From contig CAINOB010000123.1 of NCBI GenBank assembly GCA_903851365.1, positions 12,573-76,572 on the forward strand: a stretch of DNA of 64,000 nt, given 5' to 3'. Below, one piece after another: positions 1-5,729 of the stretch; within the stretch, counting starts at the first letter, position 1, and every line of letters begins with the position of its first letter. Origin of the DNA: an uncultured Bacteroidota bacterium (GTDB lineage: Bacteria > Bacteroidota > Bacteroidia > Bacteroidales > UBA12481). Under the pieces are notes generated by a model. The model was not told the origin of the DNA. It ran no database searches and was given only the letters and a program-made list of their open reading frames with translations. Position numbers and translations under genes: made by a program.

Positions 1-126
1 GGTAACCGCAGATGCCGCGTCTGTTGGATCATATTTGATTCCATACCATTTATTGTTGTATTGTTCCTGCCCGAAGGAGGCTACCCCAATGGCGAGGGCA
101 AACAAAAAAATCAGTAGTTTTTTCAT
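1..126 (-). CDS. 5' end of a signal-peptide protein running off the window; probable CLec-type fibre/DGR target protein
   Basis: Translated by hand: MKKLLIFLFALAIGVASFGQEQYNNKWYGIKYDPTDAASAVT. ATG overlaps the TGA of 123..422. The WYGIxYD..T motif recalls N-termini of Bacteroidota phage DGR-target fibres. Confidence 0.65.
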   Translation of the reverse strand, partial: MKKLLIFLFALAIGVASFGQEQYNNKWYGIKYDPTDAASAVT

Positions 127-422
127 AGGATTTCACTTTTAATGGTGGCTATCTCAGATTCGGTATCCAGTAACATTTGAGCCCGGTCAGCCTTCAACTG
201 AACCAGTGCCATGTTTTTGAGTTTTTCCAGGATAACAACCTCGTTTTTCTGAAGGTATGCGAGCAGCAACATGGTTACTATTGGCTGGTAGGGCACAACG
301 ATGTGAGTGGCGAAATCCTGTCGGTTACGATCCTCTTGATTTACCTGTCTTACTGGCATCGTGGTTACTTTGAGCAACTCTTCATAAGCCAATTTTTTTG
401 CTTTGAATTCTTGTAGTTCCAT
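123..422 (-). CDS. Hypothetical phage protein (fibre module, possible chaperone)
   Basis: 99-aa ORF translationally coupled in the fibre operon. Confidence 0.6.
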   Translation of the reverse strand: MELQEFKAKKLAYEELLKVTTMPVRQVNQEDRNRQDFATHIVVPYQPIVTMLLLAYLQKNEVVILEKLKNMALVQLKADRAQMLLDTESEIATIKSEIL

Positions 423-444
423 TGTTTAATTGATATTTAAGTGA

Positions 445-1521
445 TTATTTTTTAGTGTCATCGTTGTTATAAGAGCATCTTGCCCCGGTGGTTAACGCGG
501 CCCATGTGGTACCATTAGTTACCTCTGGAATGGCAACCCCGTCGCTATAATGCTGGGTCTTTAAATTAGAGGCCATCCACACCTGATTGCCTATTTTGAC
601 GGTCGGATATTTGTTTCCGTCATAATCTGTTACAGTGCATGGATCAGTGGAGTTATCTTTGATGAGACGGATTGGAATACCAGTCGCTTGGGTGGAAACA
701 TGGTTCGAATATAGAATTTCAGTATCGTTTGTGATATACGTTATATACCTACTCGTTCCTGACGCTGTAGTTGTCCAAGTCATTCCGTATGAACCCCCAG
801 AAATATATACTCCATCAGAGCCCCTTATTCCAACGGCAAACATTGTGAAACCACTTGAGTTATTTGTAGATTGATTATACCCTGGACTACCGGCAGTAAC
901 CCCAGAATAAGTCCATGTAGTTGTAGCTGCTATGGAATAAGCAACATCATTTCCGCTTCCACCATAGCCAAATCCATTATTTGTAAGATATGTATCTAAA
1001 GTAGTCCATTCAGTCAGTGTTGGAACATGCCAACCTGAGGGCGCGATTTCACTTTCTTTTGTGCCGTCCCCATCCGTGTCACCATTAACCGCATACCAAT
1101 TATACAAATACCCTGGCGAAGCTTCTCCAAAACAATTGTAAATGGAAGCAATAGCACCGCTGGTCATTTGCACGACCTTATAACGATCACTTGAACAGTA
1201 AGATAAATAATATCCGTCAGGTATTTTATCACAATTGGTGGCTCCGATGCCCAGATAAACATTTTGACCAACCGCAATAGATGAATATTCATAATACCAG
1301 CCGCCTAATTCGTCGCAGTAGCCATCTCTCCAACAGACATACCCGGCAAAAGCATCCTGCCAGGACCCAGCGATATAGGTATCCATCGAATAATCAATAA
1401 ATTGCCCATTTGATAGGCCGGTTGGTCTGCATGCGGTACCGGAATGAGACCAGAAAAAATTCCCCTGGCTATAAGCATTTAAGGATAAAATCAATCCAAG
1501 CATTAACAATATTCGTTTCAT
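445..1521 (-). CDS. Secreted protein with circularly permuted Fib_succ_major (FISUMP, CLec-like) domain
   Basis: Likely start MKRILL at 1521 (ATGA overlap). Signal peptide ends AYS-Q. Motifs GYLYNWYAV, PSGWHVPT..EW, IRLIKD, then TVTDYDGNKYPTVKIGNQVWMASNL. Confidence 0.85.
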   Translation of the reverse strand: MKRILLMLGLILSLNAYSQGNFFWSHSGTACRPTGLSNGQFIDYSMDTYIAGSWQDAFAGYVCWRDGYCDELGGWYYEYSSIAVGQNVYLGIGATNCDKIPDGYYLSYCSSDRYKVVQMTSGAIASIYNCFGEASPGYLYNWYAVNGDTDGDGTKESEIAPSGWHVPTLTEWTTLDTYLTNNGFGYGGSGNDVAYSIAATTTWTYSGVTAGSPGYNQSTNNSSGFTMFAVGIRGSDGVYISGGSYGMTWTTTASGTSRYITYITNDTEILYSNHVSTQATGIPIRLIKDNSTDPCTVTDYDGNKYPTVKIGNQVWMASNLKTQHYSDGVAIPEVTNGTTWAALTTGARCSYNNDDTKK

Positions 1522-4637: not shown

Positions 4638-4639
4638 GG

Positions 4640-5305
4640 TTATTTCGAATAAGAAACGCTTATCACATCATATCGATAAATAGGGATGTTTAATTGCACC
4701 CTTTTAGCCGCAAGGTTGGGGACCATCACCGTGTACTGGCCAGTGGAAGCGTGCCGAAGTTCCACCCCATTAACTGAGACTGTAAAGGCACTTGAATCCT
4801 TTGGAGTATAAGTTAAGGTGACAGTATAATATCCCGCCCCCGTAACCGAAAGAGAATCCGTTGCGGTCTCATAGGTATCGGCAGCCGTTGCATCCGCTCC
4901 CACGGAGATTCCATCCAGTTTGGTTTTGTCTGCTCCAGTCATTACCCCGGCCTGAGTAGTAGTTGCCGCCAGAATAGACAATGCCTGATAACTAGCCTTA
5001 GTAGAGTCGATGGCTACCGCATAATTAGTCGCTCCACGGGTACCTGAATTCTTGACGGTAGTTCTGATCCACTCAATTGTTGAGGCCGCATAAGCCGTGT
5101 TAATCGTAGCCGTAGAGGCTACTCCCGAAGACTTTACATTCCAGTTTGTAGAGTCGGCTACGCAATAAATTTGTGTCCCTGCAGGGAGGTTTATTCCCAG
5201 TGCTGTTGTCCGGGTAGCCACACGAACAACTTTGGAGGGGGTAACTTGCCCAAATCCATAGAGGCTCAGAGCAAGCACAAGCGAAAGGATAAATAGCTTT
5301 TTCAT
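4640..5305 (-). CDS. Signal-peptide fibre-like protein
   Basis: MKKLFILSLVLALSLYGFG-Q. Shares VVRV...LPxGT and GxxTGADKTKLD with 1518..4637. Confidence 0.75.
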   Translation of the reverse strand: MKKLFILSLVLALSLYGFGQVTPSKVVRVATRTTALGINLPAGTQIYCVADSTNWNVKSSGVASTATINTAYAASTIEWIRTTVKNSGTRGATNYAVAIDSTKASYQALSILAATTTQAGVMTGADKTKLDGISVGADATAADTYETATDSLSVTGAGYYTVTLTYTPKDSSAFTVSVNGVELRHASTGQYTVMVPNLAAKRVQLNIPIYRYDVISVSYSK

Positions 5306-5306
5306 T

Positions 5307-5729
5307 TTAATTGTGAATTATTAGTACATCGTAAATCATGGTATCCAGGTAAAGACTGATAGTATCGGTTCCTAATTTGGCCCAACGTGTATTTTCAATC
5401 ATGGACCCGTTATAGAAAACCTTTGTCGTAGTGGTTAAGGGGAAAGAGATTTTAATATTATTCTCCCCGTTGACTGTTATTTCCTTTTTGAAAATCTTTG
5501 CTACATCTGGCATGGCCCCAAGATTCCAATCTCTTCCGGTATCGTTTTTGAAGTGGAGACTATCCTGAAAGGAATATACACCCACAAAGTCCGAAGCCGG
5601 GGTCCCAATCGGTACAGTAGAGTTCTTGATCTTCATAAAGGCACTCAGATTGACAGAGGAAAAATTCCCGATCTGCGCCATGGCTGAGGTTCCGACCAAA
5701 AGAAATAGTCCAATGATTATCTTTCTCAT
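5307..5729 (-). CDS. Signal-peptide protein, fibre module
   Basis: MRKIIIGLFLLVGTSAMA-Q; tightly coupled in the operon. Confidence 0.7.
   Translation of the reverse strand: MRKIIIGLFLLVGTSAMAQIGNFSSVNLSAFMKIKNSTVPIGTPASDFVGVYSFQDSLHFKNDTGRDWNLGAMPDVAKIFKKEITVNGENNIKISFPLTTTTKVFYNGSMIENTRWAKLGTDTISLYLDTMIYDVLIIHN

Follow-up and report, generated by a model that had tools for sequence, protein, structure and literature searches.

Secretion leaders on the fibre cassette of a Bacteroidota prophage suggest that phage receptor-binding proteins mature in the periplasm

We analysed a window of 64,000 nucleotides (nt) from an uncultured freshwater bacterium of the Bacteroidota, at positions 12573-76572 of contig C123 (CAINOB010000123.1) in genome G000. 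It is enclosed by a prophage of about 63 kb, with host genes on both flanks. The late operon of this prophage contains a fibre cassette of five genes, A to E, each starting with a leader of the signal peptidase I (SPase I) type that is followed by glutamine. From their sequences and distribution, and thus indirectly, these leaders are supported as conserved, selected export signals on homologues of phage fibre and tail proteins. The fibres probably reach their mature form in the periplasm, while the particle is built in the cytoplasm. We give about an even chance to the reading that A to E are exported by Sec as a branched set of receptor-binding fibres and attach to the tail at lysis. We prefer it because neither the prophage nor G061, which is a complete phage genome with a similar cassette, yielded a leaderless fibre candidate, because leaderless homologues of the cassette proteins are tail parts, and because the genes belong to a late operon.

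All five genes lie on the minus strand. Their positions are those of the window, the prefix L001 denoting coordinates of contig C123, and a slash marks the predicted cut. A (5307-5729, 140 amino acids (aa)) is the first leader-bearing gene of the cassette, with the N-terminus MRKIIIGLFLLVGTSAMA/QIG and a leader ending in SAMA. It is followed by B (4640-5305, 221 aa), short and fibre-like, with MKKLFILSLVLALSLYGFG/QVT; by C (1518-4637, 1039 aa), a long fibre with MKRYLIGLLLFVSLPIYG/QVS; and by D (445-1521, 358 aa), a FISUMP-domain protein with MKRILLMLGLILSLNAYS/QGN. E reaches into the window with its first 42 residues (1-126, MKKLLIFLFALAIGVASFG/QEQ), the entire protein of 413 aa being encoded at L001:11457-12698. 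Each of the five has a basic start with Lys or Arg, a hydrophobic core of about 10-15 residues, small residues at positions -3 and -1 and Gln at +1. The leader of D comes from the ATG at 1521; an alternative start, a TTG, is located upstream at 1545. An initial annotation of this DNA had noted five basic and hydrophobic leaders ending in FG-Q, YS-Q, YG-Q, FG-Q and MA-Q, and all five N-termini read exactly so. It was right about the leader of the gene at 1-126, and missed that a diversity-generating retroelement (DGR) targets this gene and that the module extends to the left of the window.

Neighbouring genes of the cassette overlap or lie 1-22 nt apart, and the start of A overlaps the stop of a leaderless 203-aa gene (5726-5729). 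A to E are five out of six consecutive genes. The remaining one, between D and E (123-422, minus strand), encodes a leaderless 99-aa protein with no family match; a 73% identical homologue holds the same position in locus L011. No other open reading frame (ORF) of the prophage has a leader with Gln by the same rule set. Within the late operon, the cassette follows the head and tail genes and precedes those for lysis, and the same position is found in L010, L011, L033, L046-L048 and G061. It had been described as following capsid and adaptor genes: the capsid gene is indeed there (SU10_MCP, 4e-28), and the adaptor is a putative one, the protein encoded at 6682-7317 matching only a family of unknown function, phrog_22135. 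Consensus scans, which are weak tests, gave 21 promoter-like sites versus 23.1 expected and 10 terminator-like sites versus 9.7; an equally weak scan of the minus strand of 1-10500 gave no match to a Bacteroidota-type -33/-7 promoter. A to E have no lipobox, and no type IX secretion system (T9SS) C-terminal domain or pilin-type family of Pfam or NCBIfam matches them at E<=0.01. We therefore rejected the idea that they are T9SS cargo, surface lipoproteins or type V pilins.

Across the whole genome, 3186 ORFs reach 200 aa or more, and the rule set flags a leader with Gln at +1 in 524 of them. Five such genes among six consecutive ones would occur by chance with a probability of ~6e-4, and a chance run of leaders was rejected on this ground. 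Mis-called starts were likewise rejected after a scan of alternative ones, which rescued the leader of the fibre in L012. With the preference for Gln removed from the rule, Gln still occupies +1 in 238 of 837 predicted host leaders (28%), compared to a background of 3.4%; therefore, the host obeys the Q-rule described for Bacteroidota signal peptides in the available text of PMC5837995 and PMC10653852. A type I glutaminyl cyclase (PF05096) was not found in the host genome (99.4% complete), in a search that left out M28-type cyclases. By their sequences, A to E are predicted Sec/SPase-I substrates of the Q-rule type, with cleavage and pyroglutamate formation as expected consequences.

E is the target of a DGR, as follows from a pair of repeats with adenine mismatches and an adjoining reverse transcriptase (RT). 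The variable repeat (VR, L001:11471-11595) covers residues 368-410 of the 413, and the template repeat (TR, L001:11280-11404) lies 191 nt downstream of it. The pair spans 125 nt and has 27 mismatches, of which TR adenines account for 22. The RT (L001:10211-11176; RVT_1, 2.4e-17) is 85-87% identical to those of L010 and L011. Contigs of five freshwater or lake DNA runs that cover L001:5000-13000 are near-identical to it, with no joints and no VR variants; contigs drop rare variants, and this result carries no weight for or against DGR activity or excision. RNA runs with this stretch are absent from the listing. On the 3' side of the RT gene we find a 100-aa gene, which has no match to an Avd-like family, a 190-aa lipoprotein gene, genes of small membrane proteins and the end of the prophage. 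The 190-aa lipoprotein (L001:9337-9909, minus strand; lipobox LFMTAC) accompanies the cassette, its homologues adjoining it in L010 (50% identity), L013 (39%) and L046 (27%); it is a candidate for an exclusion or fibre-associated lipoprotein.

The relatives of E point to the tail. Its homologues (32 records, 8e-47 to 1e-5) are annotated 'tail protein' and come from many crAss-like phages, from Bacteroides phage Versailles and LoVEphage and from P. gingivalis phages. In Bacteroidales siphoviruses, these homologues follow the tape-measure, distal-tail (Dit) and tail genes; the lysis genes come after them, and an RT is frequently alongside. Sequence searches of Pfam and the PDB with E gave no match (none below E=0.1 for the PDB). 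The list of its relatives holds 119 proteins: 12 closest full-length ones, three fragments and 104 more distant ones. Leader and Gln are present in 12 of the 12 closest full-length relatives among the matches listed (47-69% identity), in ten cases by the predictor and in two by reading the N-termini (P0187 from an internal Met; P0188 was flagged as lipobox-like). Among the 104 more distant relatives listed (<=45% identity), 103 are without a leader and one was flagged with a cut that does not expose Gln.

B and C have fibre-type features in common. B is composed of the leader, a small N-terminal β domain that it shares with C, a GADKTKLD helix and a C-terminal β-sandwich. The two proteins are 45% identical over 42 residues, a stretch including most of both leaders, and have in common about 25 post-leader residues and the GADKTKLD motif. 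The AF2 model of B (pLDDT 72.9) has no Foldseek match at E<=1e-3; its eight best hits are all phage tail, neck or baseplate entries, and its Atlas neighbours are viral fibre-like clusters, all below 0.9. In C, the leader and the common N-terminal domain are followed by HxH-containing repeats (residues ~600-800) and by a widely shuffled C-terminal domain of ~100 aa (935-1039). A search of 1.84 billion representatives gave 1733 relatives of C at E<=1e-3. Of the 149 listed, many start with classical fibre-type N-termini that lack a leader, and roughly ten have the post-leader domain of B and C. These features agree with the initial annotation, which had seen fibre motifs in two genes. The C-terminal domain of C stands at the end of proteins that range from 124 to more than 2000 aa. 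Its model, with pLDDT above 90, is a β-sandwich after a helix; the best PDB folds, all with low TM-scores, are the Pa223 capsid spike (7e-6), the N-terminal part of CBA120 TSP4, a tailspike, the KP1 baseplate and T4 gp10. The repeats of C (1518-2900, minus strand) contain HxH motifs (…HSH…, …HAHGNIT…) common to hundreds of relatives; they may resemble the metal-binding HxH repeats of T4-type fibre needles. No fibre family of Pfam or PHROG matches A, B or C. With C, tblastn against phages gave no match, a scan of IMG/VR no relatives, and a word-indexed search only C itself.

D matches Fib_succ_major of Pfam (PF09603; 1e-27, 98.1 bits for a cut-off of 33.9) and TIGR02145 (9e-25, 88.4 bits for a cut-off of 41.65). 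Its mature N-terminus, QGNFFWSH, is a conserved motif. We propose, from the co-occurrence of the two genes, that D is a tip protein docking on the C-terminal domain of C. PDB sequence searches with C and D gave nothing below E=0.1. A itself has no family match. In the viral contigs L046-L048, the first leader-bearing gene (264-534 aa) has, at its very C-terminus, a stretch that matches the last 62-66 residues of A (75-140), and we propose that A may act as an adaptor between tail and fibres.

The leaders are conserved in homologues, an outcome on which the original proposal of export depended. B has 20 orthologues at 48-86% identity; the leader is present in 19 of them, one being cut short, and Gln20 is an invariant column in 20 out of 20. 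Besides the 12 relatives of E, 35 of the 149 listed relatives of C have a leader with Gln, two a leader without Gln and one a lipobox-like end. The C-terminal domain of C was followed in 35 loci (8 viral, 2 genomic and 25 metagenomic). Pairs made of the fibre and the next gene were compared in 16 loci, counting the window, where the N-terminus of the fibre is complete and the gene behind it can be read; the other 20 loci dropped out (13 with the fibre truncated at its 5' end, six with no downstream gene on the contig and one duplicate). In ten loci both genes have a leader (the window, L010, L011, L012, L016, L017, L029, L030, L033 and L035), in six neither has one (L006, L007, L009, L039, L040 and L042, the last three near-identical), and mixed pairs are absent (0 of 16). 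Fisher's exact test gives 1.2e-4, or 1e-3 with near-identical loci collapsed. In L016 the leader is on an overlapping upstream ORF, in L033 the leader of the partner is lipobox-like, and in L017 the predictor cuts the fibre before Asn, an alternative cut set by hand exposing Gln. In the 13 loci with a truncated fibre, the downstream gene has a leader and Gln in nine, none in three and is missing in one.

The gene after the fibre has an N-terminus of the NFF[W/M]xH type in 20 of 28 readable loci, either directly after Met or after the leader cut. Leaderless orthologues of D in L007 and L009 start with MNNFFWSH, which is the mature N-terminus of exported forms (Q-G-NFFWSH in the window). By this comparison, the leader appears as an add-on to a protein with a conserved mature N-terminus, and the fibre and the next gene gain or lack it together. 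The joint pattern therefore suggests that both need to be in the same compartment, and hints at docking of D on the C-terminal domain of C.

The cassette is found on different backbones. L010 and L011 have a C-like gene, D and E with its RT (63-87% identity) behind different leaderless genes, of ~700 and ~770 aa. L046-L048 have an A-like gene and B, along with a C-like gene in L046 and L048, where the contig reaches it, all with leaders; these cassettes come after leaderless genes of ~750-1070 aa, such as are typical of long-tailed phages. In L017 and L033 as well, the cassette stands behind different leaderless tail genes. It lies between tail and lysis genes in L010, L011, L033 and L046. The L046 contig, G061, is a 54,907-bp genome with direct terminal repeats (DTR), rated 100% complete by CheckV. 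Searches of it for the families PF00589, PF07508 and PF00239, which cover tyrosine and serine recombinases, gave no match, other integration systems not being excluded by them. Its only ORFs with a leader and Gln are four consecutive cassette genes and one of 159 aa. Because of its presence on different backbones and in G061, we regard the cassette as a mobile fibre module that is not confined to prophages. In L006, a leaderless 938-aa protein inside a run of tail genes has the C-terminal domain of C at its end. The MAYGL- N-terminus of that protein is like those of P0076 and of a 787-aa protein upstream of the L017 fibre. As judged from its sequence and position, this fusion ties the C-terminal domain of C to the virion.

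Another mark of the periplasm comes from glycosylation motifs. General O-glycosylation in Bacteroidota takes place at D-(S/T)-(A/I/L/V/M/T), in non-cytoplasmic proteins only, according to the available text of PMC8550257 and PMC12871550, the latter a review in which the word 'phage' does not occur. The mature parts of A, B and C together contain 19 such sequons (D[ST][AILVMT]) versus 7.4 expected (z 4.7; reached by 0 of 1000 shuffles), with the reservation that shuffles ignore local composition and that the sequences compared are related. A has three where 0.5 is expected, and C has 13 where 5.6 is expected. None of five control patterns (E-, N- and K-initial, reversed, and with a non-hydrophobic third residue) is enriched in A, B and C. 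The density in these three proteins is 12-21 per 1000 residues, compared to 3.3 in exported and 2.5 in cytoplasmic host proteins. The 37 leader-bearing relatives of C have 193 sequons versus 138 expected, and D[ST] followed by a non-permitted residue is depleted in them (95 versus 188); the 104 leaderless relatives have 224 versus 402 expected. Four sequon positions of B are kept in 15-18 of 19-20 orthologues. We regard the enrichment as a strong lead, short of proof, towards a second and independent sequence mark of life in the periplasm.

The borders of the prophage around the cassette are approximate, as a search for attachment (att) sites found no direct repeat longer than 12 nt between its two ends. 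It encodes a tyrosine integrase (56097-57467), the large terminase (TerL, 10714-12708), a P22-like portal protein (21842-23830, minus strand; Pfam P22_portal, 1e-33) and an SU10-type major capsid protein with a long hydrophobic N-terminus (7999-9357, minus strand; phrog_26635). Between the capsid gene and the cassette (5726-7904, minus strand) lie four small leaderless late genes of 195, 211, 113 and 203 aa, presumed head-tail joining or tail parts; the 211-aa protein, the one in phrog_22135, also matches gp54 of Bacteroides phage BF1-TP2. An endolysin of the glucosaminidase type (21075-21623, plus strand; Pfam Glucosaminidase, 1e-24) belongs to the lysis machinery that would open the inner compartment. 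A leaderless 923-aa protein (35864-38635, plus strand; phrog_32516) is probably the podovirus tail hub (nozzle or muzzle), which we treat as a lead only. Its 30 nearest Atlas clusters (up to 0.98) have no Pfam family in common; the nearest named ones, Phage_stabilise (P22 gp10-like, 0.93) and crAss_MUZ (0.92), are of a kind rated 'often chance', and a PDB sequence search gave nothing below E=0.1.

The nearest cultured relatives are three temperate Bacteroides phages, with a capsid identity of 26-27%. Bacteroides phage BF1-TP2 has only six genes in common with this phage (a 319-aa gene, the capsid, the 195-aa and 211-aa genes, TerL and the portal), and its tail genes are leaderless. Megablast of 1-9400 against cultured phages gave no match, and a scan of IMG/VR with the capsid protein no relatives. 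A capsid search in 60 related genomes gave two distant matches; the cassette is absent from both loci. The N-terminus of the capsid protein (9208-9357, minus strand) has a basic and then a hydrophobic stretch, with a predictor cut after residue 19. Its homologues in BF1-TP2 and in genome G054 are likewise hydrophobic there, the G054 one being lipobox-like.

No leaderless fibre or receptor-binding candidate was found in the prophage or in G061. The large leaderless tail-like candidates of the prophage are a 3139-aa protein and its two downstream genes, and otherwise only the probable hub. The 3139-aa protein (23830-33249, minus strand), directly after the portal gene, has LPD5 and LPD1 'large polyvalent protein' domains and may be cargo that is ejected; it is followed by membrane-like proteins of 456 and 218 aa. 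BF1-TP2 has a very long gene (10.9 kb, annotated as hypothetical) in the matching neighbourhood. A sugar-modification cluster stands between the terminase and lysis genes (13416-19148, plus strand), with a GFO/IDH/MocA oxidoreductase, a methyltransferase, a GT1, a GT2 below the Pfam cut-off and a Stealth-like protein well below it. It could alter the surface glycan of the host, or the lipid-linked glycan used by the O-glycosylation system. G061 may have a similar block, judging by eye from the N-termini of its ORFs. The phage also encodes two DNA methyltransferases, one of the C5-cytosine type (582 aa, 41793-43541, minus strand) and the other adjoining the terminase gene (12705-13403, plus strand), and a tRNA-Met gene (48932-49004, minus strand) is found amid early or replication genes.

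We propose the following pathway for the distal apparatus of this phage. A to E would be the modular fibre set of a temperate podovirus-like Bacteroidota phage, transcribed with the head and tail genes: A as an adaptor-like part, B as the short fibre, C as the long fibre, D as a lectin-like FISUMP tip and E as a tip diversified by the DGR. Each part would be made as a Sec/SPase-I pre-protein, reach the periplasm late in infection, be cut before Gln and probably be capped as pyroglutamate. A, B and C would probably also be O-glycosylated at their D-S/T-hydrophobic sequons by the general periplasmic system of the host. The DNA-filled particle bearing its tail hub would be built in the cytoplasm, and would gain the fibres only upon the opening of the inner membrane by holin and endolysin, at lysis or immediately afterwards. 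There, A would connect B and C, by way of their common N-terminal domain, with the tail, and C would bear D on its C-terminal domain.

Several points weigh against a place for these proteins in the virion. Tailed phages are not known to have a way of taking up proteins from the periplasm, and A to E are putative parts of the particle. The leader calls come from a crude home-made rule set, not from SignalP, and the capsid protein of this phage group is hydrophobic at its N-terminus as well, so such ends are not always export signals. The loci are related, and the concordance and sequon statistics consequently overstate independence; D and E have no sequon at all. Leaderless relatives of E have an N-terminal extension of 20-60 residues before a conserved WYG motif, which is replaced by the leader in the exported forms; if this extension is a virion anchor, exported E may not be anchored. 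In L029 (6504-12348 of a 469-kb contig), four consecutive leader-bearing cassette genes are found among cellular-looking genes, with no phage genes within 10 kb of them. That set has a fibre with the C-terminal domain of C and an NFF-type partner, and is flanked by a RuvB-like gene, recognized by eye, and by other genes of secreted proteins. It is possibly a domesticated copy or the remnant of a prophage.

The main alternative, to which we give a smaller but still appreciable likelihood, is that A to E are exported and never become part of the virion. Their place of action would be the periplasm or envelope, in an infected cell or a lysogen, where they would serve by masking receptors, excluding superinfection, shielding the progeny from adsorption to debris or through DGR-diversified binding in the manner of BovT and BfiT, and the infectious particle would bind its host by the tail hub alone. 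Leaders of the SPase-I type without a lipobox or T9SS domain predict just this location, and the missing extension of E, the context of L029 and the conserved lipoprotein gene that accompanies the cassette fit it too. Published precedents lean the same way: BovT and BfiT are exclusively periplasmic, with no link to a virion in the available text of PMC11601372, and Q-rule genes of P. gingivalis prophages were read as envelope modifiers (PMC10367356, as far as its available text goes). What speaks for the virion instead is that D, E and the C-terminal domain of C all have leaderless orthologues in canonical tail-fibre positions, with the 938-aa fusion of L006 among them. The genes are packed in the late operon, neither the prophage nor G061 yields a leaderless virion fibre, and the cassette occurs in a genome without a recombinase match. 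Moreover, B and C have their N-terminal domain in common, which is a hallmark of virion anchoring. The initial annotation had offered exported virion fibres or a lysogen surface adhesin. Export itself, which both branches share, gains indirect support, in that the leaders behave as conserved export signals on late-operon homologues of fibre and tail proteins. The adhesin is disfavoured by the lack of a lipobox or T9SS domain, by the packing with structural genes, by the absence of an excess of promoter- or terminator-like sites and by the cassette in a DTR genome free of recombinase matches. A moron would be expected in temperate phages only, and the presence of the cassette in G061, with no match to PF00589, PF07508 or PF00239, does not fit that description.

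Two further explanations seem improbable to us. The leaders may not export anything, being pro-peptides or tethers at the membrane's cytoplasmic side, cut by a phage protease or kept, on fibres that assemble in the cytoplasm. This is very doubtful. Capsid proteins of this phage and its relatives do have hydrophobic N-termini flagged by the predictor, and capsid leaders of P. gingivalis phages were suggested to be cut by the prohead protease (Matrishin et al., available text of PMC10367356). The fibre leaders, however, are short and canonical, with small residues at -3 and -1 and an invariant Gln at +1, whereas the capsid N-terminus is longer and without this pattern; in addition, a sequon specific to the periplasm is enriched only in the leader-bearing forms. 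As the Q-rule is understood, Gln at +1 matters only after SPase-I cleavage outside the cytoplasm. A shade less probable still is domestication by bacteria, in which phage-derived binding proteins were given leaders for a cellular role and are mere cargo of a defective prophage here. The cellular-looking surroundings in L029 are in its favour, and exported bacterial proteins with a tailspike fold exist, such as WceF of Pantoea (in the available text of PMC7949094). Against it, the prophage looks complete, with TerL, portal, capsid, probable hub, endolysin, integrase and replication genes. A DTR genome rated 100% complete by CheckV contains the cassette as well, and in L010, L011, L033 and L046 it lies between tail and lysis genes.

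Going beyond this prophage, we tentatively suggest, at somewhat less than even chances, that a sizeable group of environmental Bacteroidota phages with podovirus- and siphovirus-like backbones has shifted the entire distal part of its receptor-binding equipment to the periplasm via Sec, and that fibres capped with pyroglutamate and O-glycosylated by host enzymes snap onto particles built in the cytoplasm only when the holin opens the membrane. If true, tailed phages would have a two-compartment morphogenesis pathway that includes DGR-diversified tips; it would count as a new morphogenesis route only if incorporation into the virion is shown. Views on virion assembly, lysis timing and host range would have to be revised for phages of Bacteroidota, a phylum that is dominant in guts, lakes and sediments. 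Fibres would become substrates of the periplasmic chemistry of the host, namely pyroglutamate capping, general O-glycosylation and disulfide formation, with a bearing on fibre stability, on resistance to immunity and proteases and on the engineering of phage host range. The pathway would also account for 'orphan' periplasmic DGR proteins beside Bacteroides prophages, and would give a concrete, testable role to periplasmic DGR variable proteins without known function. An annotation filter that takes a signal peptide as a sign of a bacterial and not a phage gene, as in DGR and prophage surveys (available text of PMC6199706), would drop exactly these genes.

To our knowledge, the assembly of tailed phages is taken as cytoplasmic. 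The closest architectural parallels are TSP2 and TSP4 of CBA120 and the branched tailspikes of G7C with their T4 gp10-like docking domains, where several receptor-binding proteins are chained via small docking domains. The best folds for B and for the C-terminal domain of C are N-terminal parts of CBA120 TSP4, T4 gp10 and baseplate entries, a weak likeness (TM<=0.27). Complexes of this type are made and assembled in the cytoplasm. Exported proteins encoded beside tail or receptor-binding genes are known, namely Lom and Bor of lambda, Llp of T5 and Cor of phi80 and N15. These are single small genes, not homologous to fibres, whose products act in the cell in exclusion or serum resistance; here, in contrast, a whole fibre set has leaders. 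Virion proteins with Sec leaders that are assembled outside the cytoplasm also exist, as pIII and pVIII of filamentous phages, which are non-tailed and extruded through the envelope.

With regard to its DGR, E resembles Mtd of BPP-1 and the DGR tips of crAss-like phages, Versailles and P. gingivalis phage005: the C-terminal ~40 residues are mutated and the RT is adjacent. E is moreover a sequence homologue of the 'tail proteins' of crAss-like phages, Versailles and phage005. Those proteins are leaderless, whereas E and the 12 closest full-length relatives listed have a leader with Gln. In the available text of Benler 2018 (PMC6199706), phage DGR targets are without signal peptides. Macadangdang et al. 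described BovT and BfiT as DGR proteins of Bacteroides, encoded beside prophage genes, that upon over-expression were found in the periplasm only (PMC11601372, available text). Like E, they are exported Bacteroidota DGR targets adjoining prophage genes; by their description, and not by a comparison of sequences, they differ in being small, pilin-tip-like and outside a fibre cassette. Five Q-rule genes of unknown function in 'Nixviridae' prophages of P. gingivalis, read by Matrishin et al. 2023 as modifiers of the host envelope, are likewise phage-encoded SPase-I substrates with Gln at +1, an adaptation to host secretion; fibre homology, an all-or-none pattern and a DGR link are not described for them in the available text of PMC10367356. 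We found no literature report of leader-bearing fibres in tailed phages, which is not proof of their absence in print. In so far as its text was available, the published work on DGRs and the Q-rule is not linked to tail-fibre homology, an all-or-none cassette, leaderless orthologues that start at the mature N-terminus, or sequons. New here are E as a DGR target, the conserved leaders, their all-or-none pairing, the cassette in a DTR genome and the enrichment in sequons.

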